DNA of 64,000 bases, taken from assembly GCA_040880125.1 (NCBI GenBank), contig JBBDJB010000029.1, positions 12,188 through 76,187 of the forward strand, given 5' to 3'. This DNA is from Pirellulales bacterium. GTDB lineage: Bacteria > Planctomycetota > Planctomycetia > Pirellulales > JBBDJB01. The translations under genes were made by a program, and so were the position numbers. This document shows, in pieces, positions 530 to 26,150 of this stretch; positions within the stretch are counted from its first letter, which is position 1, and the number at the start of each line of letters is the position of its first letter. The notes beneath the pieces were generated by a model. That model ran no database searches. It was not told the DNA's origin and saw only the letters and a list, made by a program, of their open reading frames with translations.

Positions 530-2419
530 ATGAATGAGCGATTTCCGTCGAGCCGCGAGCAATTCCAGCGAGTCCGCGCGGAACTTCACCACAGCAGCGG
601 GCGGCCGCAGGACGGGGGCCACAAACGACGCGATCGCTCGGCCGGCGCGCTGGTACGGAGCTTTGTAGGCCTATTACGTGGGCAGTATCTCTCGCTCGCA
701 CTGGCGCTGGGGACGCTCACGGTGGCGACGATCTTGGCGCTCGTGCCTCCGGCGGCGACGAAGTTGATCGTCGACTACGTGCTGGGGGATAAGCCTCTGC
801 CAAGCGCCGTGCCGGCTTGGGTGCCGCGCGATCCCTGGCCGTTGCTGCTAGCCGTGGCAGCCACGGTGCTTGTCATTTCGATATTGAAGATAGGAATCCA
901 GATCTGGGGTCGCTGGCACGCGACGCGAATCACGAAACTGTTGCAGATGTCGGTCCGCAAAAAGGTGTTCGCCCACGTCATGCGGTTGCCGCTGCATCGG
1001 ATTCAAGAGCTTAAGTCGGGCGGAGCGGCCAGTATCCTACGTCAGGACGCCGGCAGTGTGGGCGATCTGGTGTTCGGCATGCTCTACAACCCATGGCGGG
1101 CTGTTATCCAGTTGGTCGGCAGCTTCTGCATCCTGGCATGGGTCGATTGGCGGCTGTTGGTCGGAGCGCTGGCAGCCATGCCGATGGTCTACCTGTCGCA
1201 TCGCACTTGGATCTCCCGTATTCGGCCACAGTTTCGGCGGATTCGGTCCGAACGGGAAAGGGTCGACTCGCTCGCCACCGAGGCTTTTGGCGGCATGCGG
1301 GTCGTGCGGGCGTTCGGGCGGCAGCGGGCCGAGACGAGCCGGATCATGCGCGGCAACCATCTCATGGGACGGCAAGAGTTGTACGCGTGGCGGTGGATGC
1401 GAGGCATCGAACTCCTCTGGGAAACGCTGATGCCCTTGGCGGGCGCGGGGCTACTGATCTACGGCGGTTGGCAAGTGATCCAGGGCGCCCTATCACTGGG
1501 CGACCTGGTGATGTTTTTGGCCTACCTGGCGATGTTGCTTGGACCGCTGGGAGTCCTCGCGCAAAGCGCCGCGGAATTTCAGAATGGACTGTCGGGGCTC
1601 GATCGGATTCTCGATCTTCTCGAAGAGCCGCGCGAGATGGAGTCGCAAGCGGCCGTCACGATAAATCGTGCCGGCGTAGCTGGCGGAGTGACGTTTGAGA
1701 ACGTGTCATTCAGCTATCCCGGTTCTAGCACATTTGCATTGGAAGAGATTTCGCTTGACGTGAGGCCAGGCGAAACGATCGCACTGGTCGGCCCGAGTGG
1801 CGGCGGCAAGACGACGCTCTGCAATCTCGTGGCGCGGTTCTACGATCCGACGAGCGGGCGGATTCTACTAGACGGGCGAGACCTGTGCGGCATCGACGTC
1901 GAAGGCTACCGCAATCTGCTGGGAATCGTCGAGCAGGATGTATTTCTGTTCGACGGCACGGTTGGGACAAACATCTCCTACGGGCTCCGGCATTCCACGA
2001 AGGCTCAGATCCGTGAAGCAGCCGTCGCAGCCAATGCCGATAAATTTATCGACGCCTTACCCAGGGGTTATAACACGTTGATCGGCGAACGAGGGGTAAA
2101 GCTTAGCGGCGGCCAGCGGCAGCGGATTGCAATCGCCCGAGCCGTGCTCGCCGACCCGCGCATCTTGATCCTCGATGAGGCCACCAGCAATCTCGACACC
2201 GAGAGCGAACGTACGATTCAAGCAAGCTTGACGGAGTTGATGGAAAACCGCACATGCTTCGTGATCGCGCACCGCTTGAGTACGATCGCTCATGCGGACC
2301 GGATCGTCGTCTTGGAGGAGGGGCGGATCACAGAAGTCGGGGGCCACCAGACCTTGATGGCGACCGACGGCCGCTACCGAGAGATGGTGTTGCTGCAAAC
2401 CCGCCCGGCCGAGGTTTAG
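530..2419 (+). CDS. ABC exporter, fused permease + ATPase (MsbA/MdlB-like half transporter)
   Basis: N-terminal TM bundle; Walker A GPSGGGKT, signature LSGGQRQR, Walker B ILILDEAT, H-loop IAHRLST. Confidence 0.95.
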   Translation: MNERFPSSREQFQRVRAELHHSSGRPQDGGHKRRDRSAGALVRSFVGLLRGQYLSLALALGTLTVATILALVPPAATKLIVDYVLGDKPLPSAVPAWVPRDPWPLLLAVAATVLVISILKIGIQIWGRWHATRITKLLQMSVRKKVFAHVMRLPLHRIQELKSGGAASILRQDAGSVGDLVFGMLYNPWRAVIQLVGSFCILAWVDWRLLVGALAAMPMVYLSHRTWISRIRPQFRRIRSERERVDSLATEAFGGMRVVRAFGRQRAETSRIMRGNHLMGRQELYAWRWMRGIELLWETLMPLAGAGLLIYGGWQVIQGALSLGDLVMFLAYLAMLLGPLGVLAQSAAEFQNGLSGLDRILDLLEEPREMESQAAVTINRAGVAGGVTFENVSFSYPGSSTFALEEISLDVRPGETIALVGPSGGGKTTLCNLVARFYDPTSGRILLDGRDLCGIDVEGYRNLLGIVEQDVFLFDGTVGTNISYGLRHSTKAQIREAAVAANADKFIDALPRGYNTLIGERGVKLSGGQRQRIAIARAVLADPRILILDEATSNLDTESERTIQASLTELMENRTCFVIAHRLSTIAHADRIVVLEEGRITEVGGHQTLMATDGRYREMVLLQTRPAEV

Positions 2420-2456: not shown

Positions 2457-3881
2457 ATGCCCCCACCAATGTCGTCTCCGTGCCCAAAGGCGTCCGAATT
2501 GAGTCCCGACGCAGAGCCCGAGGCCGTGTTTCCGCTCCCGTTGACGCCGTTCGAACGGTACTACCAACTGGATGACTCTCGCGAGTATCCCACGACTTTT
2601 CCGGTTGAGATTCGCTTCTCGGGAACGCTCGACCGCCAACACTTTGATTCCGCACTTGATTCCTCCGTACGCCGCCATCCGCTGTTGCGGGCGCGCATCG
2701 ACATCAGCTCCGGCAAACCGCGTTGGGTGCCTGTCGAGCGGACTGAGCCGGAGGTGGACTGGGATGACGAACAAGCGCCGATCATGCACGCTGGCGGAGA
2801 ATTCATCGACCTGGCCTCCGAGCCGGGGCTACGCACCTGGGTTCGCTCGGCGCCGGACCGGGCACGGGTACTGTTTCAGTTTCACCACGCTTGCTGCGAC
2901 GGACTTGCTGCGCTGGAGTTTGTAAAGGACTTTCTGGCATTGTACAAGGCTGCCAGAAGCGAGATGCCCGCGGGTTCGGAGCGAGGCGAGCCGGAATACG
3001 CGTTGCTGCTGCGACGCGGCGATTTCGTCCCCAGGCCGGCGTCGAGGCCATCGCTTGCGGTCACCCTTCGCGACACGTGGTATACGATCAAGGTCTGGTC
3101 GTGGATTCTAATCAAGAAGCCAGTTGTGTTAGCGAGTGGAGAAACAGCCCCGGTGACCGAACGCACGGAAGAGATCCTCGCCTTTGCCACCTCGACATTC
3201 TCGCAAGACGAGTCGCAGACGCTGCGCGAGCGGGCCGCTTCGTTGGGTGCACCTGTCAACGATCTGCTGCTGCGGGACTGGCTGCTCGTGCTGCGCCGCT
3301 GGAATCAGCAGCACTCTGGCACCGGCCGGGGAAGGTTTCGCATCAACGTGCCGGTTAGTGTGCGAACGCGCGACGAAGTGCGGATGCCGGCGGCCAATCG
3401 CATTGGCTACGCATTCGTCACGGACGAGGGCACGGCGGCCGACGACGCCGGATTGCTCGATGTCGTTCTCGAAGAAACGCGGCGGATTAAGCAGTGGAAG
3501 CTGGCACTGTACTTTCTCGGCGGGCTGGCCCTGGCCGGCAAATTTCCGTCGGTCATTCGCTGGGCCCTGCGGCGAAATGCGTCGCTCGCCACTGCTGTGT
3601 TGAGTAACGTCGGCCGCTTCTCGCCCGCAAGGTCGGTCAGGCGAGGGCAGAAGTGGACGTGCGGCGACCTCGTGCTAGAGCGCGTGTGTGGGGCGCCCCC
3701 AATTCGCAAACTGACGCGAGCGGCGATGATCGTTATCGAATATGCCGGCCAGACGACGTTCTGCCTGCGCTGCGATCCTCACTTCTTCAGCGCCGAACAG
3801 ACGCGTGCGCTGCTCGACGCGTACGTGGCGCAGATCAGCCAAACGGTAGATGGCAACAGCGAACCAGACCCCCAGGCGTGA
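2457..3881 (+). CDS. Stand-alone condensation-domain / CoA-dependent acyltransferase (PapA5/C-domain fold)
   Basis: Catalytic HHxxxDG (FHHACCDG), RHPLLRA, VPVSVR and C-terminal LSNVG motifs of the CAT-fold acyltransferases. Confidence 0.85.
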   Translation: MPPPMSSPCPKASELSPDAEPEAVFPLPLTPFERYYQLDDSREYPTTFPVEIRFSGTLDRQHFDSALDSSVRRHPLLRARIDISSGKPRWVPVERTEPEVDWDDEQAPIMHAGGEFIDLASEPGLRTWVRSAPDRARVLFQFHHACCDGLAALEFVKDFLALYKAARSEMPAGSERGEPEYALLLRRGDFVPRPASRPSLAVTLRDTWYTIKVWSWILIKKPVVLASGETAPVTERTEEILAFATSTFSQDESQTLRERAASLGAPVNDLLLRDWLLVLRRWNQQHSGTGRGRFRINVPVSVRTRDEVRMPAANRIGYAFVTDEGTAADDAGLLDVVLEETRRIKQWKLALYFLGGLALAGKFPSVIRWALRRNASLATAVLSNVGRFSPARSVRRGQKWTCGDLVLERVCGAPPIRKLTRAAMIVIEYAGQTTFCLRCDPHFFSAEQTRALLDAYVAQISQTVDGNSEPDPQA

Positions 3882-3890
3882 GCAGCCGTT

Positions 3891-4655
3891 TCACGCGTGT
3901 ACCGCGGCTCCGCCGTCGACTGTCAGCGTTTCACCCTGCACCAAGTCCGACAGGGCGCTGGACAAGAACAGTACACAATTTGCCACGTCGTCGGCGGTTA
4001 AGAAACGATCGCCGGTCATGCTTCGTAGCTTGCGCGAGGCGAATAATTGGTCGGCATAGGGGATGCGCCGGGTCGAGTCGGTCTCGACGAGGCCGGCCTT
4101 CACGATGTTGAGGTTTATGTCCTTGTCTCCCAACTCCAAGGCGAAATGCCGGATAAAGCTTTCCAGGGCAGCTTTCGAGCCCCCGACCGCGCCATACATC
4201 GGCAGCGCCATGTGCGAGCCGTGGCTGGAAATCGCCACAACCTTCGACCGTCCTTCGGCCCGCTGGAACAATCGCACGCTGGCTTGCACCAGGTGGATCA
4301 ACGCCATCACGTTCGTCTTCATCGTCGACTCAAAGTTCCTCTGCGTGATGGCCAGCATCGGCCGGAAGCCTCCGGTCGCGGCGTTGCTCACCAGGATATC
4401 AAGCTTGCCGAACTTCTCGTCGACGAACTCCATCATGGCGTCGATGTCATCCCGCTCGCTGATGTCCGCCTTGACGACCGCCGCATTGCGTCCCATCGCA
4501 GCGATACGCTCGGCGACTTCGTCGGCGGCCGCCTGCGAAGTGACGTAGTTGATAATCACGTCGGCGCCGGCTTCTGCCAGCCGCAACGCACAAGCACGGC
4601 CGATGCCACGAGATCCGCCAGTGACCAGGGCTTTGCGTCCACTCAAGTCGATCAT
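3891..4655 (-). CDS. Enoyl-ACP reductase, FabL-like SDR
   Basis: TGGSRGIG, NAATGGFRP and Y-x6-K (YGAVGGSK) spacing of FabI/FabL enoyl reductases, followed by AALES. Start moved to ATG 4655 (MIDLSGRK). Confidence 0.8.
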   Translation of the reverse strand: MIDLSGRKALVTGGSRGIGRACALRLAEAGADVIINYVTSQAAADEVAERIAAMGRNAAVVKADISERDDIDAMMEFVDEKFGKLDILVSNAATGGFRPMLAITQRNFESTMKTNVMALIHLVQASVRLFQRAEGRSKVVAISSHGSHMALPMYGAVGGSKAALESFIRHFALELGDKDINLNIVKAGLVETDSTRRIPYADQLFASRKLRSMTGDRFLTADDVANCVLFLSSALSDLVQGETLTVDGGAAVHA

Positions 4656-4712
4656 GCTCGTGTCTCTCGCTCGCAAAATATTAACGTAATAGATCCGAGA
4701 TATACGGGAGTC

Positions 4713-5438
4713 TCACGCCGAAGCCGCCATCAAGGGCTGAGAGCTCGCCGCGGCGCATTGGCTTGACATGCCCACCAAATCGGCCAGTGCCGCGAAGTGT
4801 CCGTCGATACGCCAGCTTTCGAGTCTCCGCACCGCCGCCGGGTCGAGGCCCGGATAGCGCGGCTCGCGCCCGGGCACAACTTCGATTCGCCCGGGGGTAA
4901 AGCCCTCGCCACACTGGGCAGCCTTGTACAAGGCCTCCTTCAGCGCCCAAATCTGTTCGACGGTTCGCAAGTGTGCCGGGCTGCTCGCCAGCCACTGCCG
5001 CTCGCGCGGGGAGAGGCTCCACTGCAGGCTCCGCACCATGACATCACCCCGGCAGACCAGGTCGACACCCAGTCTCTGCTCGGCGTCTCGCCCAAGCGCC
5101 ACCAGCACGCCCCGCGATGTGTGCGCAATCGACATCCCGACGTCTACCTTGCAGTCAGTGACATAAACAACCGGACGCTCGCCGTGTCCGAGCGTGGTCG
5201 AGCGCGTTTCGATATGAATCTCATTGGGCGTAATCTCATGTCTGCCCATTTCGTCCAGTAGCGGCAGGAGCATCCGCTTGGCCAGCACCCGGCCGCTCAC
5301 CCAGGTCAGGCGTCGCGTTTCGCAGTGCATGCGGTCACGAGCCCGGCGTTCATCGAGCGAGAGCCATCGCTCGGCCAATTGCGCGCCGTCGTCCGCAAGC
5401 TCGGATAGCCGTGCATATTGGCAGCGGATGCGCGCCAC
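4713..5438 (-). CDS. 4'-phosphopantetheinyl transferase (Sfp/HetI-type)
   Basis: SIAHT, LGVDL and WALKEALYKA motifs. Start placed at GTG 5438, just after the PKS stop, with a GGAG SD; the longer ORF overlaps the PKS. Confidence 0.88.
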   Translation of the reverse strand: MARIRCQYARLSELADDGAQLAERWLSLDERRARDRMHCETRRLTWVSGRVLAKRMLLPLLDEMGRHEITPNEIHIETRSTTLGHGERPVVYVTDCKVDVGMSIAHTSRGVLVALGRDAEQRLGVDLVCRGDVMVRSLQWSLSPRERQWLASSPAHLRTVEQIWALKEALYKAAQCGEGFTPGRIEVVPGREPRYPGLDPAAVRRLESWRIDGHFAALADLVGMSSQCAAASSQPLMAASA

Positions 5439-5440
5439 GC

Positions 5441-8400
5441 CTATCTCCCTCCCGCGCCGACGCGAATCGTGCGGTAGCCGTCGACCTGCAACAGCGGCTG
5501 CTCGTCTTCGCCGAACAATGTGAAGTCGAAGCGGCTGTGTCGCTCGCCGCGCTCGCGGAAAAAAAGACGTAGGATGCAGGTCGCTCCGGCGCGGGGCATG
5601 CGTGCCAGCCGCAGGTGCTCGAACGCGTAAGGCACCTCCAGCACGCCGCCGAACTGCAAGTACAGGAAGCTGCCGCAGGCGACGACGCAGGCGTCGAGCA
5701 CCGCCGGCGACGTTATCCAGTCGGTATCGCCGCGCGGCCCGGCCAGTTCGGACAGCGGCGGAGCGATGATCTTGCCCCAGCCGCCGTCGTATTGGTAGGC
5801 ACACTCTTTCAGGCATCGTAGCGGATCGCCATGAAAGAGCAGCCCTTCGTCCGGATAAGCGTGTGGAAACCATCCCAGCGGAGGCCGGCCGGGTGCATCG
5901 GCATGAATCGGCGAGCCGTCCGCCGTTGTGGGTATGAATCCCTCGACATGCAGCCGGGCCGGATCAATCATGCGGCCTTTGCGGTCGCGCTGCTCGGTCA
6001 GTAAGCGGCAGGCGAGGCCTCCTTCGACCGGGGCCACTTCGACACGCGCCCTGATCGGGCTATCGGTCGGAAAGAGCATGCCGTTTTCGATCCTCACGTT
6101 GCGCAGTTCGGATACTGCCCGTCTGTCCAGTGCACAAGACGCCGCTTCTGCCAGCGACTCCAGCCCGACTACGCCCGGCAGGAATGGCCGACTCTTGAGG
6201 CGGTGCTGGCTCAGAAAGGGATCGCCGAGTGGATCGAAGGCAATATCAGCGATGCCCCCACCGCCTTCGGAGGCGTGCCATGCGGCCACCAGCGGCGGAG
6301 TGCCGGAGTCTTTCTCCGAAACCTCTGCGGACGGGGCGTCGTTGCCGGTGGTAATCTCAACCTCGTAGGGATAGAACCGCCGCTGAAAGAAGCCATCGGT
6401 CACCAGCACTTCGCTGCGGGGAGTGCCGGCCCTCAACTCGTCGATTAAATGGGCCACGCCCTCGGCCGGCGAAATGAAGTCCATCTTGAAGGCGTTCTTG
6501 GTGATTCCTACGCCGTCTGCCAGCAGGGCCATGCCGACCGCGTCCCAGGTTTGCCAATGGAAACAGACGCTGTGGCATTCGGGCCGTCGGGTGCGAAACC
6601 AGCCGCAGAGCTTGGCCAGCATGTCATTGGCCGCGGCGTAGTCGCTCAGCCCGTTGCCGCCGAAGCGGCCGCTCAATGAGCCGAAGCCGACGAAGTAGCG
6701 GAGCGGATCGCCGCTGGTCAGGTGCATCAATGCGAGCGTGCCGCTGACCTTAGGGTCAATCGTGTCGCGCAGCTTGGCGGCCGCGCCGGTGCCAAAGCGA
6801 AAGCTCTTGGCGTAGCCGGCTCCGTGAATGATGCCTTCGATGGCGCCGTCCAGTTCGCGAATGGTCGTCAGCACGCGACCCAGATCGTCCCAGTCGGCCA
6901 CGTCGCAGACGTGATAAGTGGCCTCGACGCCGGCCTGGGCGAACCGGTCGAGCGATTGTTGGATTTCGCGGTCTTTGCGAACCCGGTCCCAGTCGTCGGT
7001 GGGCGATCGCCCTTCCAGCGTCGCCTTTCGCACGATCTCCGACTTGATCGCCTTGAGTTGTTCCTCAGTGCAGTTCTGCCACGGTGTATTCGGTTCCGGT
7101 GCGGGGCTCTTGCCGAGCAGATGCAGCTTGAGTCCATAGCGGCGACCGATCTCCAAGGCAGTTTCGGCCGTGATGCCGCGAGCCCCACCCGTGATGACCC
7201 ACACCCCGCCGCGCGGCAGTTCGCCCACCGGCAGCGCTTCGACCGGCTCGCGCTTTACCCGGACGACCTGGCGGCGGCCTCCGACATATGCAATTTCCAC
7301 CTCGGGCACGTCGGCGGTCAATTCTGCGCACACGGCCTCGGCCAACTCCGCCGGCGGCTCATCGGCCGGGGCATCAATTACCCTCACGTGAAAACGCGCG
7401 TGGTCGTAGCGGTCGTCCTCGACGAAGATCGACTTCAGCAGCCCCGTCAGGGCGCCGCCTTCGGGATTCGGCACGCCGGCATTGAAGCCGAAATCGCCGC
7501 CGAGGGAAATCAGGGCTACCAGTGTCGCCTGGCCTGCTTCCGGAGTCTTGCTAACGAGCTGAAACCACTTCCGCGTCACCCAGTAGGGCAGATAAACACC
7601 GCGCTCGATCCGCGCGGCCGCGGTTGAACAATCGTTCCACGCTTCGCTCGCCACATCGCGGGACGTGGCCAAAACGAGACATCGGGCCGGCGAATGTTCG
7701 AACGCCCGCTCCAACTCGGCACAGGTCGCTTCGGCGTCCGCGCCGGAGGGCAGCCGGTGTACTTGAACGCCGCGGGCAGCGAGGGTGGCGGCAAGCGACT
7801 CGGCATCGGGGTTGTCGCCCAACAAGAACGCTGACCCGGGCAGCGCTCGGGCGGGCGTGGACGCTGCCAACGGTGCGTCGAGCATGTGCATCGTCATGCG
7901 ATCGGCAACTCGCGACGCCGGCGATGCTAGCGAAGGGGATTCCGATGGTTGCGGCACTGCTGTGCCGGGGGCTCCCAACAGATCGTCGCGCTTGGCCACC
8001 TCATCGTAATTGTCCGCGTAGTACCGCTGGTGGTATTCCCAGTCGGTGACGAGCACCTCGGTGGCAGCCGGACGCGTGTACAACTCGCGGAGCAGGTGTC
8101 GCACGCCCGTCCGCTCGGGCATCAGCCGCAGGTTGCTGGCCTTGAGTATGGCCTCCGTGTCGGGTCGCGAGGCCATGCCCACCGCGTCCCAGGGGTGAAA
8201 GTGAATGCCGATCGCATGGACGTCGGGTCGCCAGCCGCGGTACCAGCCGGTGAGCTTGCAAAGCATATCGCTGGCGGCGGCGTAATCGGTCTGGCCATTG
8301 CTCCCCAGCCGGCCACTGATCGAGCCAAAGCCGATAAAATGACGTACCGGATCATCACGGGTCAGGTGCATGAGGTTGTAGGCGCCTAAAACCTTGCTGC

Positions 8401-11400
8401 CCACGGTCGCCTCGACCGTCTGGCGCGTCTTCTTCTCGAAGCGGCTGGCTTGTTCAACGCCGGCGCCGTGCAGAATCCCTTCGATGGGACCGTCGGCGCG
8501 GCGGACATCGTCGAGCACGCGCGACAGTGCCGCACGGTCGGCGACGTCGCAAGCGTGATAGGTGTATCGAACGCCCGCCACCTTGAAGCTTTGCAGGTTT
8601 CGGTCAATCTCGATGGCTTTCGCCACTTGGGCCCAAGCTTCGTTGGGTTTTTTACCGTTCTTGCGGGCATCGACGATCACGCGCGTCCGCAACTGGGCCG
8701 TTTGCTGTTCGTCGAGATTGCGCCAGTCCGAATCGATGGGCTCGGCCGGAGTGGTGCCGATCAGGTGCAGCTTCAGGCCGAAGCGGCGTGCCAACTCCAG
8801 CCCGCATCTGGCGGTGATGCCGCGAGCCCCGCCGGTGAGCACCCAGGTGCCGCCGGGACGGACGTCGCTATGGGTCTCTAGGTCAGCGTATTCCGGCAAG
8901 GCAACCTGCAGGTAGCGCCGACCGTTGACAAAGGAGAGCTCGTAATCATTCGTGCCGTACGCGAGTTCGCGACAGATATTAGTGGCCAATCGGCCGGGTG
9001 ATTCGCCACGCGGAGCATCAATGGCCTTGGCCAAAAATCCCTTTTGCTCACGCATGATGCCGTATTCGAGCAGCAGCGACTTCATCAACCCGGTCGCAAA
9101 TCCTGACTCGGGCGAAGCGACCTTTCCGGAAAATCCCAAATCGCCGCCGAGATCGAGAGTGGTGACGACGGTGCAGTCGCGAAGACGTTTGGCGTCGGCT
9201 GCCAGTTGCATTTGGCGCTGGCACAGGTAATACGGAAGCAGCACTCGCTCGCGATAGACCTGATCGAAGCCCGCCGGATCTGTGCGGTCTGTCAAAGTTT
9301 CATCGCGCAGCCCGGTGAGAAACAGATGCATGATCGGCTGTTGCTGCCAGTGGCGCTCAAGCTCGGTCACGGCCGCCTCGGGCGAGTGGGATTCCGCCAA
9401 TCGCACGACCGTGGCGCCGCCTTCGGTCAACCGCTGGCAAAGTGCGTCGGCAAGCGAGTTGCTGCCACAGACGGCCGCCGCCCCTTTGAAAGCGGGAAAG
9501 TCGGCCGGCTGCTTGTCCCACGGCATAGGAAACATCCGCAGCACAAACCGCATACTCTCGCGATCGTCGGACGAACGGTCGAGCAAGTCGTCGGAGGATG
9601 GGCTCGCCGTTGTCACTTTCGGCTCTGGCGCTAGCTGCGGGGCGGGCGTTTCCTTCGCCGTAGGTGGGGATCCGTTGCTGCCGAACGTAGCTGGGTCGCC
9701 CGCCGGCGCCGCCGGAAGCAACGCCCCGACGTGTACGCGCTGGCGAAGCGTCCCACAGTCGAGCAGCAAGTCGCCTGCGGCCGCGTCGACCACGGCGATC
9801 AGCCGCAAGGTCCCGCGCTCCGGCATGTCGGCTAATGCCTGCAGCAGTTCGCTCGCGGTTTGGGGTGAATCAGAGGCGGTAAGCCGCTGCCGGAGCCAGT
9901 CGAAACGTTCAAGCGATGCTGCCGGCGCGGGTACTGACGCGGTGTGCAGCACGCAATGATTTGTGGCTACGACCGGCCCGGCCGCGTCTTGCTCCGCCAG
10001 GTGTTGGCCGTCGTGCTCGGCCGCACAGAGGCGGCGTTGCGCTTGATGGCTTAAGCACGTCGTCCAACCGCGAGACGTCTTTACGCCTCGTAGGCTGCTG
10101 GCGGCGCGTTCAAGCGTGTCGCTGCGCTGCAGCAGGCCGTCGATGCGCATCGTGGTGGGGTGCGATGCGGAACCGTTCGAGCCGGCGGCGGAATTGAGGA
10201 GTGCGCCGGTCGACGCTGCCAGGCCGTTGGCATTAAGACCCACCAGGCTGCCGACCAGTCCGGCGAAAGTAACCGTGGCACATGCCCACCCCTGGGCTGG
10301 CTCCCGTACGAGCACGAAGGGCGTGAGCACTTCGGTCAGGGCGGCCGGCAATGAGAGCTCACCGACCAAGCCGTGCAAGACGCCCGCGGATGATGCACCC
10401 GGGAGCAGTGCCACCTGAGCGATCCCGGCGGCGAAGTCGCTCTGCACGGTCAGGTTGAGCGCGGCCAGATTGCCCGCCGGCACTTCCAACGCATCGGCCA
10501 ATCCGCGTAGCTCATCCCATTGATCGGTGGTAAAGAAAACCTGAGGGTTGGACCGGGCCTCGGTCGGCAGCGGCAATTCGCCCCAGTCGCCGTCCGTCAG
10601 GTCAGCGACTCGCCGGAGGAGAAGTTGGATCTCCGTTTTTTTTTCCAACCCGTGCTGTCGCCCCATCTCATACGGGGTGCCGCGCACGTGCAGGATATCC
10701 ACTTTTGTCGCGACGCATTCCGCCGTGGCGGCAGCAGTCATTCCAGCAGCACTACTTACCGCGGGCGGTGCAGTCGCGGGGCCAGGCGCCGCGGGCTCGG
10801 AAGCGGCAGGCGTTTGCGTCGGCGCGGCAGTGTCCTTTTGCGGAACTTTGGCCAGGAACTCTACGATGTGGCGCAGCGTGGGAAAATCATCGAGCGTCAG
10901 GTCGTCGGTGGGCGTGACGTCGAAATACTCCTGCAACTCACCGAACATCTGGGCCTTCTTGATGCTGTCGATGCCCAGGTCTGCTTCCAGGTCGGCGTCG
11001 AGCTCGACCACTTCAGCCGGGTAGCCGGTTTGCTCGACGACAAAGTTGATCAAGAACTGTTCGAGCTCGGCAACGTCAACGCCAGAGGCAGCGGGTGAAG
11101 CCGCTTCGGGCGGAGCCGTAGACTGTGGCGACGCAACCGAGGTGGGAGCCGGTACAGCCGCGGTCAGCGGTGCCGATGTAGCAGTCGGTGCAGGTGCTGC
11201 GGCGGGTTCCGGCTGGGGTGCTGCGCCGGACGGTGCTGGGGTGGACGTAGCAGCGCCCTTTTGCGGAACTTTTGCCAGGAACTCCACGATGTGGCGCAGC
11301 GTGGGAAAATCATCGAGCGTCAGGTCGTCGGTGGGCGTGACGTCGAAATACTCTTGCAACTCGCCGAACATCTGAGCCTTCTTGATGCTGTCGATGCCCA

Positions 11401-14400
11401 GGTCTGCTTCCAGGTCGGCGCCCAGCTCGACCACTTCGGGCGGATAGCCGGTCTGCTCGACGACAAAGTTGATCAAGAACTTTTCCAGTTCAGCCAGGTT
11501 CACCGCGCTGGAAGCTGCCGGTTTGGACGGATCGGCCACCGCAGCCGGAGCCGCGACTGCTGGAGCCGAGGATGCCGGAGCGGGGGCAGGTGCTGGCGCT
11601 GGCGCCGGGACTGCTGGTGCCGCGCGATCGATTGCCGCTTGCGCGGGCGCGGTAACTCCGGCGCTTCGACCAGACGGCACGCCCGGCTGCCCATTGCGTC
11701 CGGAACTCTGCCGCATCTTTGCCCGGCGGCGGGCCGTGGCATCAAAGTGCCAAATCTCACCACGCTCCACCGGTGTGACGGCCGCCGGCGCCAGCACCGA
11801 AGTCGTACTCCTCTGCCGATCCATCGCGCCGCTGCACTCCAGCAGCGCTTGCACGCGCATGATTTGCTCGACGCCCGGCCGCGAGGGATTATCGCAGGCG
11901 ATCCCCGCATACTCATGGGCCGCCAAATTACGGCGGTTGAGGCGGCTGAGAGCCTGTTGAGGGCCGACCTCGACGAAGACGGTCGGACCCTGGGCCGCCA
12001 AGTCTCGCACCAGTTCGGCGTAGCGTACCGGTGTCGTCAAGTGGGCCACCAGGTTGCGACCGATTTCGCTTGGATCGCGGATGACCCGGTTCGTCGCCAC
12101 GCTGTACGTGGTCACGCGGGGAGCTTGAAACCTCTCAGCGGCGATCTGCTGTGCGAACCGCGCGGCGGCGTTGGCCATCAAGGGTGTATGGAACGGGCTG
12201 GGTACCGGCAGCATGCGGGTCTCGTACATGCCTACTTGCAACATCTTCTCCAGCTCAGCGAGCGCCGGCAGCGTGCCGCCGACGACCGTCTGGTCGGGGG
12301 CGTTGTGATTGGCCACGAAGACCGGCCCGGCGACGCGTGGCGCCATCTGCTCGATCACTTCCGGCGTGGCGGTGGTAGCCAGCATTCCTCCTTGTCCGCC
12401 CGGGAAAGCCGTGATCGATTCGCACCGATGTCGTGTCACCCGGATCGCTTGCTCCAGATCCCAAGCTCCGGCAGCCAACAGCGCGGGATACTCGCCGTAG
12501 CTGTGACCGGCCACCAGATCGGGCGTGATGCCGTGCTCTTCGAGCGCCGCAGCCACCAGCACATCGGCCAGCAACATCGAAACCTGGGTGATCCATACAT
12601 CCTTGCCCAAGGGCGAAGCTTCGTCCCAGGCCAACTGCGCCCAGCCGGGATAGCCAAGCCGTATCATCACGGAATCGATCTGCGCCTGCCGAGCACGTAC
12701 CGCCGGCACTTCATCCACCAGTTGGCGAAGCATGCCGGTGTATTGCGAGCCCTGGCCGGGGAAGAGGTATGCGATTCGCGTGTCAGGATTGGCCTGGCGG
12801 TAGAAAACGCCTTGCTGCTCAAGCACGGTTTGGGCCGCGGCGTTGTCCATTTGTTTCAGCGCCAGACCGAGTTTCGTCGAAAGCGCCTCTGAGCTATCGA
12901 CTACGATCGCCAGGCGGAAGCGGTCTTCGGACGAGAAACGGCGCCGGCTGGAGGCGTCCAGTGTGCCGGTGTCCGATTGTGCTGCTTCGATTGCCCGCCG
13001 CAGTGCAGCGGCGTCTGCACCGCCGAAGCGGCAGATTCGCCATGTACCCGACATTCGGCCTTCAGAAGTAGCCGCCGATTGAGTCGCCGGCGGAAAAGAA
13101 GGAGCTGCGGCGGCGGCTGTGGGCGCGGGCATGGATGCCGCGGGAGCCGGCGTAGGTGACGAAGCTTGCGCAGATGCAGCGGCCGGTATAGGCGCGGGTG
13201 CGGCGGGTTCTGGCGTGGGCGAGGCGGTTCCCTTCTGCGGGGCCTTCGCCAGAAACTCGACGATATGACGCAGCGTGGGAAAGTCGTCGAGCGTCAGGTC
13301 GTCGGTCGGCGTGACATCGAAATACTCTTGCAGCTCGCCGAACATTTGGGCTTTCTTGATGCTATCGATGCCCAAGTCTGCTTCCAAGTCAGCGTCCAAC
13401 TCGACGACTTCCGGCGGGTAACCGGTCTGCTCGACGACGAAGTTGATCAAGAACTGTTCGAGCTCGGCCAAGTCGACGTTCGCAGGCGCAGGCTGCGCAG
13501 CCGGCGCGGGGTGGGTGGCCGGGGCCAACGCGGCTTCAGACTGCGAAGGAGCCGGTACGGCAGTGGCGGAAGCGGGTGCTTGAGCCGGCGCGGCCGATTC
13601 CCTTTGGGGAACCTTCGCGAGGAACTCCACGATGTGGCGCAACGTGGGAAAGTCATCGAGCGTCAGGTCGTCGGTCGGCGTGACGTCAAAGTATTCTTGC
13701 AGCTCACCGAACATCTGAGCTTTCTTGATGCTGTCGATCCCCAGGTCGGCTTCCAGGTCGGCATCGAGCTCGATCACTTCCGGCGGATAACCGGTTTGCT
13801 CGACGACGAAGTTAACAAGGAACTGTTCCAGCTCGCCCACATTCACACTTATCGCGGCGGCATTGGACGCCAGGGCCGGCGAAGCAGAAGCCGCCGAGGG
13901 AGAAGCCTCCACTTGGGGCGCTGGAGCCGGGGTGGGAGCGGCGCTTGCGACTCGGCTGCCGTACTCGAGAACCGCATGATAGGCCAGCCCACGTGAACAG
14001 GTTCCCACGGCGGCCAGGCGCCGGCCGTCGGCGGTGGTGAGCTCGATGGCCGTCCTCGCCGCCGGCGCCGCCAGCACGTTACCGTGCTCAGTGACAAAGG
14101 GAGCGGCTGCCTTCAGTCCGACCGCGGGCGGCAACTCGCCGTGACTGACCTCCAGCACGGCTTTGAGCAGTGAGACCAGCGACGAGGCCCCCTGCGTGTT
14201 GCCGAGTTGGCCAAGAATTGAACTGAGCAGCAAAGGCCGCGGGCGGCCACCTTTGCCGTACACTTCGGCCACGGCGCGCACCTCTTGTGCCGTGGCGTTG
14301 TTGTCGCCCAGCGCGTCCAGCTCCATAAGCGCCACGTCTGCGGGGCGAGTGGCTCCGTCGCTAAAGGTCCGCTGCATGGCCAGCTCTAGTGCGTGGCCCC

Positions 14401-16804
14401 AGGACGTGGAGTCGTGCGCCGCGCCAACTCCCCGCAGCACGGCGTGGATTCGATCGCCGTCGCGCTTGGCGTCGGCCAGCCGCTTAAGCAGAAAGACGAC
14501 GACGCCTTCGCCCGGCACGTGGCCTTGCGCATGCGCGTCCAGCGGCGAACGTGCGTCGCCCTCAGCCAAGTCGCCGCCGATGGCGAGGCTCTCGTAAATC
14601 GGCCAGCCCATACGGCGCTGGCCCGCGGCGCAGGCCATCAGATCGCAATCGCCGGCCAAGAGCATGTCGATGCTCGTCGAGAGCGCGGCCAGCCCCGAAG
14701 TCTGCCCGGCGTCGATGGCCGCGGCGCCGCCCATCGTGTTCCAGGTCTTGCCGATTCGCGATGCCAGCGAACTGGTGCTGAAGCTGCCAGTTTCGTCGAT
14801 CAGTGCGGGCCAGCGCTTGAGCAAAGCTTCGGCGTAGTTCTTGCCGACCTGGCGGGCCTGTTCCACACTAAAGCCGCGTCGAGTCAACAACGCCTCGAGG
14901 TGGCGCTCCAGCTCGGGCAAACGCAACCCGATCTGCAATTGGAAGGAGAAATCGCCGCCGAACTCCGTGCCCACGACGACGCCCATATTCTCGCGTGGGA
15001 AGGACCTTTCGTGATAGCCGGCGTCCTGCATCGCCTGGTCGGTCGCCTCGAGCAGCATGAACTGCAGGGGATCGGCCTGCTGCACCTGCTTGGGCGGCAC
15101 TTTGTGTCGCTTCCAGTCGTACTCGAAGTTGGCGATGAATGCTCCGCGGAGCGACTTCGGATCGGGAGCGCCCGGCTGAGGCGTTTTCAGCACGATGTCC
15201 GGCCGCCAGCGCTCCGGCGGCACCGGCGTCTTGGGATCGGTGCCGGAGGCCAGCAGGTTCCAGAATGCGGCGGGATTCTCCGCTCCCGGCAGAACGCACC
15301 CCAGCCCGATCACAGCAATGGCCTGCTCCTCGCTGGAGAGCTTTTGCTCCGGCGGACCGGGGACGGCGGCCGCCAGGTCGCGGCTCGACTCAGTGAACTC
15401 ATCGATCACTACATGCATATTGAGCCCGCCGATGCCGAACGCATTGACGCCCGCCCTGCGCGGCTTGCCGTCGGCCCGTTTAGGCCAGGCGACCGGCGTA
15501 GTGGGCACGTAAACCGGCGCCCGTTCCCAATCGATGTTGGGATTGAACTGGCGGATGTTGATCGCCGGCGGCACGATCTCGTTGTTCAGGGCCAGCACGG
15601 ACTTGATCACCCCGGCGATGCCGGCCGTTTCGAGCGAGTGGCCGATGTTCGCTTTGACGCTGGTGATCGGAATTCGCTTGCCGGGCGGCAAGCGCTGCCC
15701 GAGGATCTCGGTCAGCGTGTTCAGTTCCGTGGCGTCGCCTAGCTTGGTGGCCGTTGCATGGGCCTCGACATACTCCAAATCGGCGATATCCAGCCCGTCG
15801 CGGTAGGCACGTTCCATCGCCTTGAGCTGGCCTTCCTTGCGCGGAGCCCAGAGACTCTTCCCTTTGCCGTCGGATGAGACGCCCAGCCCGCGGACAACGG
15901 CCAGCACACGGTCGCCGTCGTCCAGAGCGCGCTTGAGCGTCTTCATGACCAGCGCCACGTAACCTTCGCCGCAGACCAGCCCGTCGGCATCGGCGTCGAA
16001 GGGACGTGTGCCGGTGGCGCTCATCGCGCGGGCGTTCGAGAACAGCACCAGCGAGTCGCTCTTGCAGTCCGATGCCCCGCCGACGATGGCCATGTCGACA
16101 CGGCCCAGTTGAAGAGCCCGGGCCCCCAGCAACATTGCCTGTAAGGACGAAGCACAGGCGGAGTTGATCGCCAGGTACGGTCCATTGAGGCCGAAAGCTT
16201 TGCTGATTGTGCCGGCCACGAGACTGGCGGAGACGTCCGGGGCATCGGCCGTGGGGCGCGGCAACGGTTCGCGCACACGCTGGATAAGCTCGGCGATGAT
16301 CGCCTGTTGTTCGGCTTCGGGCAGCGCGGCGAAATCCGGCACGTCGCGGAGGAACTCGGCGGCCTCCGTGATACAGCTCGAGTAGGTGTGGTCGCCGGCC
16401 TTGGTGCTGCCTTGGGCATGGCCCACGTAGACGCCGGTATTGGGCAGCGGCACGTTGAAAGGATCGATGCCGGCGTGCCGCAGGGCGGAGGCGGCCACGT
16501 CGCACATTAGCAAGTGAGCGATGTCCACCCGTTCCGCCAGCTTTTCATCAATGGGGCAGCGCGTGCGGTCGAACGTGCGGCTGGAGATGATTGCCCCCAG
16601 CTTTGAGTAGGTCTTACCACGTACGCCGACTTTGGGATCGAAGTACATGTCCTGGTCGAGCCGATCCGGTGGCAGCTCCACGACGGCGCTGCGCCCTTCG
16701 ACGAGCATCCGCCAGTACTGATCCAGATCGTCTGCCCCGGGAAGGCGGCAGGCCATTCCTACGATGGCCACAGGAACTTGGTGCGGAAGGTAGGGGTCGG
16801 CCAT
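5441..16804 (-). CDS. Pfa/Hgl-like iterative type I PKS, 3787 aa: KS-KS(Q)/CLF-ACP-ACP-AT-ACP-ACP-C45-like-KR-KR-DH
   Basis: KS1 intact triad (NSACASS, EAHATAT, NIGHSLE). KS2 DAGQTS with both His lost. AT FPGQGSQ/GHSYG/SPFH. Four LGIDSIK ACPs. Two TGGARGI...YAAA KRs. DH DPFLSQHRLKSRPFLPG...DAC. Confidence 0.95.
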   Translation of the reverse strand: MADPYLPHQVPVAIVGMACRLPGADDLDQYWRMLVEGRSAVVELPPDRLDQDMYFDPKVGVRGKTYSKLGAIISSRTFDRTRCPIDEKLAERVDIAHLLMCDVAASALRHAGIDPFNVPLPNTGVYVGHAQGSTKAGDHTYSSCITEAAEFLRDVPDFAALPEAEQQAIIAELIQRVREPLPRPTADAPDVSASLVAGTISKAFGLNGPYLAINSACASSLQAMLLGARALQLGRVDMAIVGGASDCKSDSLVLFSNARAMSATGTRPFDADADGLVCGEGYVALVMKTLKRALDDGDRVLAVVRGLGVSSDGKGKSLWAPRKEGQLKAMERAYRDGLDIADLEYVEAHATATKLGDATELNTLTEILGQRLPPGKRIPITSVKANIGHSLETAGIAGVIKSVLALNNEIVPPAINIRQFNPNIDWERAPVYVPTTPVAWPKRADGKPRRAGVNAFGIGGLNMHVVIDEFTESSRDLAAAVPGPPEQKLSSEEQAIAVIGLGCVLPGAENPAAFWNLLASGTDPKTPVPPERWRPDIVLKTPQPGAPDPKSLRGAFIANFEYDWKRHKVPPKQVQQADPLQFMLLEATDQAMQDAGYHERSFPRENMGVVVGTEFGGDFSFQLQIGLRLPELERHLEALLTRRGFSVEQARQVGKNYAEALLKRWPALIDETGSFSTSSLASRIGKTWNTMGGAAAIDAGQTSGLAALSTSIDMLLAGDCDLMACAAGQRRMGWPIYESLAIGGDLAEGDARSPLDAHAQGHVPGEGVVVFLLKRLADAKRDGDRIHAVLRGVGAAHDSTSWGHALELAMQRTFSDGATRPADVALMELDALGDNNATAQEVRAVAEVYGKGGRPRPLLLSSILGQLGNTQGASSLVSLLKAVLEVSHGELPPAVGLKAAAPFVTEHGNVLAAPAARTAIELTTADGRRLAAVGTCSRGLAYHAVLEYGSRVASAAPTPAPAPQVEASPSAASASPALASNAAAISVNVGELEQFLVNFVVEQTGYPPEVIELDADLEADLGIDSIKKAQMFGELQEYFDVTPTDDLTLDDFPTLRHIVEFLAKVPQRESAAPAQAPASATAVPAPSQSEAALAPATHPAPAAQPAPANVDLAELEQFLINFVVEQTGYPPEVVELDADLEADLGIDSIKKAQMFGELQEYFDVTPTDDLTLDDFPTLRHIVEFLAKAPQKGTASPTPEPAAPAPIPAAASAQASSPTPAPAASMPAPTAAAAAPSFPPATQSAATSEGRMSGTWRICRFGGADAAALRRAIEAAQSDTGTLDASSRRRFSSEDRFRLAIVVDSSEALSTKLGLALKQMDNAAAQTVLEQQGVFYRQANPDTRIAYLFPGQGSQYTGMLRQLVDEVPAVRARQAQIDSVMIRLGYPGWAQLAWDEASPLGKDVWITQVSMLLADVLVAAALEEHGITPDLVAGHSYGEYPALLAAGAWDLEQAIRVTRHRCESITAFPGGQGGMLATTATPEVIEQMAPRVAGPVFVANHNAPDQTVVGGTLPALAELEKMLQVGMYETRMLPVPSPFHTPLMANAAARFAQQIAAERFQAPRVTTYSVATNRVIRDPSEIGRNLVAHLTTPVRYAELVRDLAAQGPTVFVEVGPQQALSRLNRRNLAAHEYAGIACDNPSRPGVEQIMRVQALLECSGAMDRQRSTTSVLAPAAVTPVERGEIWHFDATARRRAKMRQSSGRNGQPGVPSGRSAGVTAPAQAAIDRAAPAVPAPAPAPAPAPASSAPAVAAPAAVADPSKPAASSAVNLAELEKFLINFVVEQTGYPPEVVELGADLEADLGIDSIKKAQMFGELQEYFDVTPTDDLTLDDFPTLRHIVEFLAKVPQKGAATSTPAPSGAAPQPEPAAAPAPTATSAPLTAAVPAPTSVASPQSTAPPEAASPAASGVDVAELEQFLINFVVEQTGYPAEVVELDADLEADLGIDSIKKAQMFGELQEYFDVTPTDDLTLDDFPTLRHIVEFLAKVPQKDTAAPTQTPAASEPAAPGPATAPPAVSSAAGMTAAATAECVATKVDILHVRGTPYEMGRQHGLEKKTEIQLLLRRVADLTDGDWGELPLPTEARSNPQVFFTTDQWDELRGLADALEVPAGNLAALNLTVQSDFAAGIAQVALLPGASSAGVLHGLVGELSLPAALTEVLTPFVLVREPAQGWACATVTFAGLVGSLVGLNANGLAASTGALLNSAAGSNGSASHPTTMRIDGLLQRSDTLERAASSLRGVKTSRGWTTCLSHQAQRRLCAAEHDGQHLAEQDAAGPVVATNHCVLHTASVPAPAASLERFDWLRQRLTASDSPQTASELLQALADMPERGTLRLIAVVDAAAGDLLLDCGTLRQRVHVGALLPAAPAGDPATFGSNGSPPTAKETPAPQLAPEPKVTTASPSSDDLLDRSSDDRESMRFVLRMFPMPWDKQPADFPAFKGAAAVCGSNSLADALCQRLTEGGATVVRLAESHSPEAAVTELERHWQQQPIMHLFLTGLRDETLTDRTDPAGFDQVYRERVLLPYYLCQRQMQLAADAKRLRDCTVVTTLDLGGDLGFSGKVASPESGFATGLMKSLLLEYGIMREQKGFLAKAIDAPRGESPGRLATNICRELAYGTNDYELSFVNGRRYLQVALPEYADLETHSDVRPGGTWVLTGGARGITARCGLELARRFGLKLHLIGTTPAEPIDSDWRNLDEQQTAQLRTRVIVDARKNGKKPNEAWAQVAKAIEIDRNLQSFKVAGVRYTYHACDVADRAALSRVLDDVRRADGPIEGILHGAGVEQASRFEKKTRQTVEATVGSKVLGAYNLMHLTRDDPVRHFIGFGSISGRLGSNGQTDYAAASDMLCKLTGWYRGWRPDVHAIGIHFHPWDAVGMASRPDTEAILKASNLRLMPERTGVRHLLRELYTRPAATEVLVTDWEYHQRYYADNYDEVAKRDDLLGAPGTAVPQPSESPSLASPASRVADRMTMHMLDAPLAASTPARALPGSAFLLGDNPDAESLAATLAARGVQVHRLPSGADAEATCAELERAFEHSPARCLVLATSRDVASEAWNDCSTAAARIERGVYLPYWVTRKWFQLVSKTPEAGQATLVALISLGGDFGFNAGVPNPEGGALTGLLKSIFVEDDRYDHARFHVRVIDAPADEPPAELAEAVCAELTADVPEVEIAYVGGRRQVVRVKREPVEALPVGELPRGGVWVITGGARGITAETALEIGRRYGLKLHLLGKSPAPEPNTPWQNCTEEQLKAIKSEIVRKATLEGRSPTDDWDRVRKDREIQQSLDRFAQAGVEATYHVCDVADWDDLGRVLTTIRELDGAIEGIIHGAGYAKSFRFGTGAAAKLRDTIDPKVSGTLALMHLTSGDPLRYFVGFGSLSGRFGGNGLSDYAAANDMLAKLCGWFRTRRPECHSVCFHWQTWDAVGMALLADGVGITKNAFKMDFISPAEGVAHLIDELRAGTPRSEVLVTDGFFQRRFYPYEVEITTGNDAPSAEVSEKDSGTPPLVAAWHASEGGGGIADIAFDPLGDPFLSQHRLKSRPFLPGVVGLESLAEAASCALDRRAVSELRNVRIENGMLFPTDSPIRARVEVAPVEGGLACRLLTEQRDRKGRMIDPARLHVEGFIPTTADGSPIHADAPGRPPLGWFPHAYPDEGLLFHGDPLRCLKECAYQYDGGWGKIIAPPLSELAGPRGDTDWITSPAVLDACVVACGSFLYLQFGGVLEVPYAFEHLRLARMPRAGATCILRLFFRERGERHSRFDFTLFGEDEQPLLQVDGYRTIRVGAGGR
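10841..13834 (-). repeat. Four near-identical 228-bp ACP-coding repeats (13607-13834, 13238-13465, 11264-11491, 10841-11068)
   Basis: ELE(Q/K)FL(V/I)NFVVEQTGYP(P/A)EV(I/V)EL(D/G)ADLEADLGIDSIKKAQMFGELQEYFDVTPTDDLTLDDFPTLRHIVEFLAK(V/A)P occurs four times, separated by Pro/Ala-rich linkers. Confidence 0.95.

Positions 16805-25196: not shown

Positions 25197-25200
<4 letters not shown>
22690..25200 (-). CDS. ABC transporter permease, duplicated FtsX/MacB-like
   Basis: Two repeats of TM + periplasmic domain + 3 TM, with ERRHDLAVLRVLGA and EQTRELGLLRIIGM motifs. Confidence 0.9.
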
Positions 25201-25922
<722 letters not shown>

Positions 25923-26150
25923 CAAAGGCTTCCGAGAGTGCCGTGTGCGACGTATGGCGGGGGGCGATCACACGCAAATCCCGACGGTTGCCTGCCACGC
26001 GGCAGCCCGTGGAGGATCAGGTCTCGCGGGGCGCGCAAGTTACCGCAGATTTCCTAAATTGCCAATCATACATTAAAATCCTGGCTTGGCGATGGGCCGG
26101 TCATGTGACCAACGCCCCCGATTCCATTCCCGTTTGCCCCCGCGCTGAGC

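Follow-up and report, generated by a model that had tools for sequence, protein, structure and literature searches.

What is a domain of the isopenicillin-N acyltransferase (IAT) type doing in the middle of an iterative polyketide synthase (PKS), and what part can it still play once the residues of its chemistry are gone? The question is raised by a 64,000-nucleotide stretch of contig JBBDJB010000029.1 from a Pirellulales bacterium (assembly GCA_040880125.1), called here, in its full length, the window. Its largest gene encodes a PfaA-like synthase, within which lies a segment resembling the N-terminal nucleophile (Ntn) hydrolases of peptidase family C45. The segment proves to be a genuine member of the C45 fold that has lost its nucleophile and much of its active site, and it is nevertheless held by purifying selection; in our judgement it is probably a non-catalytic, selected fossil of a PKS-embedded Ntn domain, with a scaffold or docking role as its most likely present function.

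An Ntn-hydrolase fold within the synthase

The features on which the argument turns are the following.

5441..16804, minus strand: PfaA-like iterative PKS, 3787 amino acids, recognised from its open reading frame (ORF), from Pfam and NCBIfam models and from phmmer searches with its own segments
10847..11065, minus strand: fourth acyl carrier protein (ACP) domain (ACP model, PKS residues 1914-1986), directly upstream of the C45-like domain
9710..10705, minus strand: C45/IAT-like Ntn-fold domain, catalytically degenerate, PKS residues 2034-2365
9821-10684, minus strand: NCBIfam envelope of the C45-like domain, PKS residues 2041-2328
10424-10426, minus strand: Gly94 codon GGG preceding Ile95 (codon read)
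10421..10423, minus strand: Ile95 codon ATC (PKS residue 2128), standing where Ntn enzymes have their nucleophile Cys (codon read and alignments)
10358..10375, minus strand: H111-G-L-V114-G-E116 in place of H-x-x-N-E-D, the His retained, the Asn and Asp gone
8186..8851, minus strand: first ketoreductase (KR) core (PF08659, PKS residues 2652-2873), downstream of the C45-like domain

A first-pass annotation had recognised the domain by five motifs, VRGTPYEMGRQHG, DELRGLADA, AALN, FAGLVGSLVGLNANGLA and VATNH, all of which are present in the minus-strand translation of 9710-10705, and its claim of a C45/IAT-type Ntn domain within the PKS is borne out by a family model, a profile match to IAT, a predicted structure and its superposition on known enzymes. 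The NCBIfam model NF040521 (C45_proenzyme) matches the segment alone with an E-value of 5.3e-26 and 91.7 bits (cut-off 85), and scores 83.4 bits, slightly below that cut-off, over residues 2041-2328 when the whole PKS is read. A family profile run against the Protein Data Bank (PDB) finds IAT (2x1c) at E 2.5e-22. The AlphaFold2 model of the segment, for which 32 homologues were used, has a pLDDT of 92.4 and a pTM of 0.91; Foldseek aligns it with 2x1c at E 1.6e-18 and a TM-score of 0.75, with acid ceramidase at E 4e-14 and with NAAA at E 7e-14. VIA-align superposes 308 of 332 residues on 2x1c (Z 32.4, rmsd 2.8), then matches acid ceramidase (Z 30.3) and NAAA (29.9), and after those the cephalosporin acylases, penicillin V acylases and bile salt hydrolases. 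Model and superpositions together display the alpha-beta-beta-alpha Ntn fold. The homology of the segment to the C45 family far exceeds chance, and by descent the segment truly belongs to the C45 (IAT-like) Ntn-hydrolase fold.

Of the check that had been proposed for this assignment, an Ntn-fold match together with a match to Pfam family PF03417, the first part stands clearly on Foldseek and VIA-align, and the second does not, as PF03417 is silent on the segment. This family is nonetheless included in the precomputed Pfam lists of two homologous PKSs, and a language-model search with the segment also reaches PF03417 clusters. Sequence detection of the segment thus varies by model, as NF040521 matches it and PF03417 does not.

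The C45-like domain sits between the last ACP and the first KR of the iterative PfaA-like PKS. Probing with the PKS's own segments (phmmer) gave the order KS-CLF-ACP-ACP-AT-ACP-ACP-C45-KR-KR-DH (KS, ketosynthase; CLF, chain-length factor; AT, acyltransferase; DH, dehydratase), with the C45 in its degenerate state. Pfam detects KS, four PP-binding domains, Acyl_transf_1, two KR and PS-DH, and Pfam and NCBIfam jointly recognise two KS-type domains, the second being the CLF. Measured against TIGR02813 (PfaA) the protein reaches 987.4 bits, below the cut-off of 1010.1, and does not qualify as a full-length PfaA. The linker from the fourth ACP to the C45-like domain is about 45 residues long and poorly conserved (identity 0.42). 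The four ACPs (window 10847-13850, PKS residues ~985-1190 and ~1800-1990) are almost identical to one another; two of them come after the CLF and before the AT in the window's close clade, and in more distant C45-PKSs every ACP follows the AT. Close homologues of the PKS carry the names of proteins from Pirellulales metagenome-assembled genomes.

Loss of the active site and retention of the fold

The first-pass annotation placed an Ile where the nucleophile should be, and the reading depends on the register of the alignment. In the family hidden Markov model alignment, the columns of Gly94-Ile95 hold Gly-Cys in 76 of 131 representative domains, and all 76 carry N-x-D as well. In the structural alignment (VIA-align), model residue 95 falls on the beta-subunit starts of NAAA (6dxx_B, residue 126) and acid ceramidase (5u7z_B, residue 143) and on the mature starts of penicillin V acylase (2pva, residue 1) and the bile salt hydrolases (residue 2); in structural terms, Ile95 takes the place of Cys126 in NAAA, Cys143 in acid ceramidase, Cys1 in penicillin V acylase and Cys2 in the bile salt hydrolases. 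HMMER registers to IAT that set Cys103 opposite Ala104 (phmmer) or 4 residues off (profile) were overruled. The reason for rejecting them is that they place no gap in a hairpin to which this family adds 4 residues, its spacing from Cys to Asn being 20 against 16 in IAT, and the Ile95 register was accepted because the family alignment and the structural alignment agree on it. At the H-x-x-N-x-D site both the Asn and the Asp are present in 100% of 115 intact sequences, the N-E-D of the family lines up with N-W-D of IAT in the profile alignment, and the query's clade has V/A/S and E at these positions.

The window's domain has Gly94-Ile95 in place of the Gly-Cys self-cleavage site, and neither the Asn nor the Asp of H-x-x-N-x-D, of which the Asp is the partner of the nucleophile's amine. 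Both replacements named in the first-pass annotation are confirmed: the codon at 10421-10423 is ATC in a register on which two kinds of alignment agree, and the HGLVGE that stands at the second site has lost Asn and Asp. The comparison of homologous PKSs for Gly-Cys that it called for returned the dyad, at the expected columns, in the 76 domains already mentioned. With Ile at the nucleophile position and the Asn and Asp replaced, neither Gly/Cys self-cleavage nor an acyl-enzyme should be possible, and the window's domain is read as a pseudoenzyme.

The loss is not confined to this genome. A domain tree of 177 sequences, from which the trait columns had been taken out, groups the window's copy within an all-degenerate clade of 35 (support 0.90) that spans deep divergence, to about 30-35% identity; the clade is an old one. 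At the nucleophile column the close-clade members have I, S, C, A, A, A, A, T, C, C, and none of them retains N-x-D. A separate clade of 10 PKS-embedded domains (support 0.94) has exchanged the Cys for Gly (G270, as L074/L075; L098, L106; P0018, P0025, P0038, P0065, P0093, P0095 and P0117) and keeps N-E-D and T-N-H in nine of the ten, P0065 reading N-E-E; judged by its sequences, it is a second and different kind of pseudo-domain. Eleven smaller groups are likewise non-intact, and at least 10 state changes are needed on the 177-sequence tree.

What has been lost and what has been kept can be read from the 66 columns that are at least 80% conserved in the 115 intact sequences. The 35-member degenerate clade has lost 34 and kept 32 of them. 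Those kept are chiefly glycines and fold positions, together with H111, R134, N158, N249-H250, S264 and R267; those lost include Gly-Cys, N-E-D, R129, H184, Y228, Y231, D232 and H263, as well as R270, R292-D293, T296-T299 and S303, among others. The close clade has about 60 newly fixed columns. Among six full-length orthologues the mean identity of the C45 domain (0.647) is close to that of DH (0.634) and the KR regions (0.68-0.69) and exceeds that of the flanking linkers (0.42/0.49), and 139 of its 327 columns are invariant. The ratio of nonsynonymous to synonymous substitution rates (dN/dS) is 0.10, 0.22 and 0.23 for the C45 domain; KR and DH have 0.12-0.27 and the linkers, as far as computable, 0.17-0.36, the C45 value lying below the flanking linkers in all three computable comparisons; the figures are rough, as dS is near saturation (0.8-1.6). 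The window's domain evolves under purifying selection like the KR and DH domains, and its fold and new clade-specific residues are held by that selection. The suggestion that the domain is dead and yet retained is therefore upheld on both counts, the first by the lost catalytic residues and the second by dN/dS and identity.

The embedded family and its gene neighbourhoods

A HMMER scan of 1.84 billion representatives returned 313 proteins at E<=1e-3, with 123 at E<=1e-10, and long multidomain proteins are the majority among the matches listed. When the query PKS's own domains were used as probes on 131 near-full representative domains, a recurrent architecture emerged, KS-CLF-AT-(ACP)n-C45-KR-(KR)-DH, in which the C45 is preceded by an ACP in 64 and by an AT in 35 and is then followed by a KR in 92. 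With the query segment, relatives turn up in 11 of the 401 genomes sampled across the phylum and in 27 of the 201 sampled across the order. Species genomes were also scanned with an intact-type alignment pattern of five sequences, which contains N-E-D and biases the outcome to intact copies; it gave 38 loci, mostly from Planctomycetaceae, plus one contig each under the labels Sulfotelmatobacter, Rhodothermales, Omnitrophota and Chloroflexota. A more divergent C45 profile run on the phylum brought up mostly stand-alone C45 ORFs of about 400 amino acids, and the embedded domain was searched for with the query segment instead; stand-alone ORFs of this length match the domain profile in 242 of the 401 sampled phylum genomes. 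The KS-CLF-AT-(ACP)n-C45-KR-DH architecture is widespread, and the PKS insertion exists in intact, Cys-to-Gly and fully degenerate forms and is common in Planctomycetota. No publication on an Ntn or C45 domain within a PKS was found in a search that covered subscription journals and supplements poorly, the literature on peptidase C45 and polyketides yielding only the stand-alone AzsT/Tri14 in a gene table, and the embedded architecture is apparently undescribed.

The family varies in other ways. In some relatives, among them G270 (L074/L075), L096, L097 and G594 (L054/L055), the ACPs are encoded by an ORF of their own and the C45 comes right after the AT; G594 has an additional KS-CLF-ACP3 protein upstream. 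Gene splits at the domain in L080, L083, L086 and L103 were considered as evidence of cleavage and rejected, as they coincide with 100-N masks, and so were the frame breaks in G522 and G534, which resemble assembly indels or decay. In these two genomes (L050/L051 and L052/L053, respectively) the orthologous PKS is in many short frames, with two stops inside the C45 match in G534; either assembly indels in genomes of low completeness or a real decay of the cluster may be responsible. A search of the window's own genome found no second embedded copy. Its contig C24 carries, at about 99900-101460 (L002 1435-2733, minus strand), an unrelated C45/choloylglycine-hydrolase-like ORF of 432 amino acids with an N-terminal membrane anchor, an apparently intact Cys and a GRNLDW motif.

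Around the PKS the window holds a set of genes that bears on how the chain may be released and further processed.

530..2419, plus strand: ATP-binding cassette (ABC) exporter, transmembrane and ATPase parts fused
2457..3881, plus strand: free condensation-domain protein with the HHxxxDG motif (FHHACCDG), PF00668 E 5e-13
3891..4676, minus strand: FabL-like short-chain dehydrogenase/reductase (SDR), probable trans enoyl-ACP reductase, NF005975 FabL 256 bits, below the cut-off of 328
4713..5435, minus strand: 4'-phosphopantetheinyl transferase (PPTase), PF01648
16994..18523, minus strand: stand-alone thioester-reductase-type SDR (NAD_binding_4), PF07993 E 3.8e-35, directly upstream of the PKS
18634..19482, minus strand: hydrolase of the metallo-beta-lactamase (MBL) fold, YtnP-lactonase-like
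19581..21044, minus strand: AMP-dependent acyl ligase
21047..22402, minus strand: class-III (HemL/GntE-like) aminotransferase
22690..25925, minus strand: MacB-type permease and ABC ATPase, at the upstream end of the conserved cluster

The thioester reductase scores 92 bits against TIGR01746 (Thioester-redct), below the cut-off, and the condensation-domain protein is weakly WS/DGAT-like (TIGR02946, 44 bits). The PPTase frame (window 4713-5873) runs, in another frame, across the final ~430 bases of the PKS gene. No PfaB, PfaC or PfaD and no associated line of nonribosomal peptide synthetase (NRPS) and PKS genes was found among the ORFs of window 1-32000.

Probes made from the window's neighbour genes were run on 20 loci of the order in a context of about 35 kb. 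A cluster common to the close clade consists of ABC ATPase, MacB-type (FtsX) permease, class-III aminotransferase, AMP-ligase, MBL hydrolase, thioester reductase, PKS, PPTase and FabL-like SDR, with a condensation-domain gene in divergent orientation, and this order is held in six complete orthologous loci. For the comparison of intact with degenerate copies, the order loci and the 38 pattern loci were combined into a set of 36 loci with embedded copies only, a locus being kept if at least 3 kb lay on both sides or if the thioester reductase had already been seen; L110 was dropped since it is on the same contig as G421. The counts of adjoining genes were as follows.

Thioester reductase: degenerate 15/15, Cys-to-Gly 2/2, intact 7/19
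Condensation gene: degenerate 14/15, Cys-to-Gly 0/2, intact 4/19
Aminotransferase: degenerate 11/15, Cys-to-Gly 0/2, intact 0/19
GH3: degenerate 0/15, Cys-to-Gly 0/2, intact 7/19

These counts come from a biased sample, the degenerate loci from a query search in one order and the intact ones through the N-E-D pattern, and the flanks of the intact loci mostly reach 2-7 kb past the PKS, where a thioester reductase or aminotransferase farther away would be missed. Domain state changes 2 times on the tree of the 36 loci, where 1-2 independent pairs are available (sign test p = 1). With about two independent events, none of the associations of domain state with a neighbouring gene can be told apart from shared ancestry, from the two routes of sampling or from the shorter flanks of the intact loci. 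The first-pass annotation had proposed that the chemistry of the lost site was taken over by the free condensation enzyme, and that the loss of Cys should go with a neighbouring condensation gene. The raw counts do differ in this sense (14 of 15 against 4 of 19), yet they come down to those two state changes, and the proposal is not specifically supported: the gene also stands beside four intact Gly-Cys copies (G594, G421, L103 and L112), and the loss is followed no less closely by the thioester reductase (17 of 17 non-intact against 7 of 19 intact) and by the aminotransferase. The adjacency pattern fits what would be expected if the Ntn chemistry was lost only after a reductase had become available.

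Intact loci without the thioester reductase have a PKS-(PPTase)-SDR core followed by a GH3-family acyl-acid amido synthetase (Pfam-confirmed), which is accompanied in two of them by an O-methyltransferase and a Rieske oxygenase. In L090, L091 and L101 the gene immediately upstream of GH3 is a stand-alone intact C45 of this subfamily, and no PKS was found near it within flanks of about 9-10 kb on each side. The C45-GH3 pairs span L081 15918-20228, L084 15821-19864, L099 16239-17987, L109 14283-16214, L090 9662-12821, L101 9650-12864 and L091 8201-14712. To judge from these arrangements, an intact C45, whether embedded or stand-alone, and GH3 look like a conserved module. GH3 enzymes adenylate free carboxylic acids, and the adjacency fits hydrolytic off-loading by the intact Ntn domain, without proving it.

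A possible scaffold, binder or hidden enzyme

Known systems help to define what the domain may once have done. IAT, by its entry titles and its generally known mechanism, self-cleaves at Gly102-Cys103 and transfers the acyl group through Cys103. The window's domain has its fold and family in common with IAT (MEROPS C45; PDB 2x1c/2x1d/2x1e), shares the GTPxExG, ELRGxA, GxNxxG and TNH motifs with it, and resembles the IAT precursor in holding alpha-part and beta-part in one chain; it differs in being embedded in a PKS, in reading Gly-Ile at the cleavage site and in lacking the Asn and Asp, whereas IAT is free-standing. Acid ceramidase and NAAA (5u81, 5u7z, 6dxw, 6dxx) have the same fold (Z 28.8-30.3), beta-subunits that begin at the equivalent of Ile95, and fatty-acyl substrates, but they are lysosomal, have an active Cys nucleophile and are only 14-17% identical to the window's domain. 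Closest in setting are the intact PKS-embedded domains (P0012, G594, G421, L099 from Planctopirus hydrillae, L081), which occupy the same position in a PKS of the same architecture and are 30-35% identical to the window's domain; unlike it they keep Gly-Cys, N-E-D and other conserved polar residues, and in many of them the thioester reductase is missing from the neighbourhood and a GH3 amide synthetase comes next.

The synthase itself shares with PfaA (TIGR02813) the iterative logic of KS, AT, tandem ACPs, KR and DH and a PPTase in the cluster, and departs from it in its fused KS-CLF, in ACPs that flank the AT on either side, in a pair of KR regions and in the added Ntn domain. In their account of secondary lipid synthases, Shulse and Allen 2011 (PMC3098273) list planctomycete types I and J, and the text of that paper contains neither 'C45' nor 'peptidase'. 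Another parallel for the cluster as a whole is zeamine biosynthesis in Serratia plymuthica (PMC3547906; PMC13291983), for which the accessible portions of the accounts describe reductive release, then transamination, then amide formation. As far as those portions go, both clusters have a PUFA-like (polyunsaturated fatty acid) synthase, a thioester reductase, a class-III aminotransferase function, a free condensation domain and ABC exporters, and in the window the synthase, reductase, aminotransferase and condensation enzyme all lie within 22 kb, a likeness of gene content. According to the same excerpts, the zeamine aminotransferase is a domain of the PfaD-like Zmn12, and PfaC- and PfaD-like proteins and an NRPS/PKS line are present there, unlike among the ORFs of window 1-32000; conversely, the zeamine excerpts report no Ntn domain, unlike the window's cluster.

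The following scenario is proposed. The window's domain would descend from the widespread, catalytically intact PKS-embedded domain; having no self-cleavage, its PKS would remain a single chain, in which the domain may stand between the ACPs and the reductive half as a scaffold or a surface for docking. The chain would be released by the adjacent thioester reductase, with the aminotransferase and the free condensation enzyme acting next, and the product, by gene content and the analogy with zeamine, may be an amine- or amide-type lipid that the ABC exporters carry out. Where the domain is intact and the reductase missing, the Ntn domain probably off-loads a free acid to the neighbouring GH3 amide synthetase. 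Homologues with intact Gly-Cys and N-x-D at the same position of the PKS are common, and it is plausible that they split their PKS, as the first-pass annotation had imagined. A fuller version is possible, but we hold it tentatively: intact homologues would self-cleave at Gly/Cys between the ACPs and the KR, the new N-terminal Cys would off-load the chain as a free acid for GH3 or onto an amine, and the window's domain would be a scaffold fossil left once release had passed to the thioester reductase.

Scaffolding or docking would be the most likely present role of the domain, though other roles have to be weighed against it. One would be a non-catalytic ligand binder: holding either the phosphopantetheine arm or the acyl chain, it could gate chain length, serve as a parking site or mediate the hand-over from ACP to reductase. 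The domain lies directly after the ACPs, its fold relatives NAAA, acid ceramidase and bile salt hydrolase bind fatty or steroid acyl groups (by their entry titles), and residues of pocket type (N158, N249-H250, H111, R134, R267, S264) are kept; many conserved polar positions have nevertheless been lost (R129, H184, Y228, Y231, D232, H263, R270, R292-D293, T296-T299, S303), from which it is argued that the original pocket was remodelled, and we regard such a binder as rather unlikely. More improbable still is an enzyme with a different catalytic set, such as an internal Cys142/His dyad or a Glu116-based hydrolase, that would perform release, editing or acyl transfer with no self-cleavage. Of 18 close-clade sequences, 17 have Cys142, at a position mostly held by His in intact relatives, E116 is a conservative swap for the catalytic Asp in 94% of the close clade, H111 and N249-H250 are retained, and dN/dS is as low as in the catalytic domains. 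However, Cys142 occurs in only 49% of the wider 35-member degenerate clade and is therefore no feature of the loss as a whole, the nucleophile column varies freely (I, S, C, A, T), as expected of an abandoned site, and no Ntn-fold enzyme is known to us that works without the free alpha-amine.

Least credible of all is a decaying, functionless relic, tolerated because the excision of 330 residues from the middle of a megasynthase is hard. The loss of the nucleophile and of half of the conserved positions would agree with decay, as would the repeated origin of degenerate states (at least 10 changes on the 177-sequence tree), but a dN/dS of 0.10-0.23, near KR and DH and below the linkers in three comparisons, an identity of 0.65 against 0.42-0.49 in the linkers, 139 of 327 columns invariant in six orthologues, a fold predicted at a pLDDT of 92 and a degenerate clade that has persisted to about 30-35% identity all speak against it. 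The reading of the domain as a selected, non-catalytic scaffold has its own difficulties. PF03417 gives no match to the segment at E<=1, and neither does any other Pfam family. Some close relatives have a potential nucleophile at the abandoned column (Cys in G537, G522 and G534, Ser in G456, Thr in G417); in most of these the preceding Gly is missing, and the Asp is missing too. Candidates for an alternative site are at hand in H111, E116, N158, N249-H250, R134, R267 and Cys142, which is specific to the clade (17 of 18 close-clade sequences). To these must be added the near-saturated dS and, for the neighbourhoods, the paucity of independent changes, the biased sampling and the short flanks described above.

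Synthases for polyketides, fatty acids and polyunsaturated fatty acids are known to off-load their products by means of a thioesterase, a reductase, a condensation domain or an acyltransferase. The literature found, with its poor coverage of subscription journals and supplements, describes no such device in the form of an Ntn-hydrolase domain integrated into the synthase. The more interesting result lies outside 9710-10705, in a widespread and apparently undescribed PKS-embedded Ntn domain in three forms. The intact, Cys-to-Gly and degenerate forms provide a natural series on the function of the domain, on the self-splitting of megasynthases and on the conversion of a catalytic into a structural domain. 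For genome mining, the state of the domain, together with a thioester reductase or GH3 neighbour, may predict the release chemistry in a large family of uncharacterised planctomycete lipid clusters.

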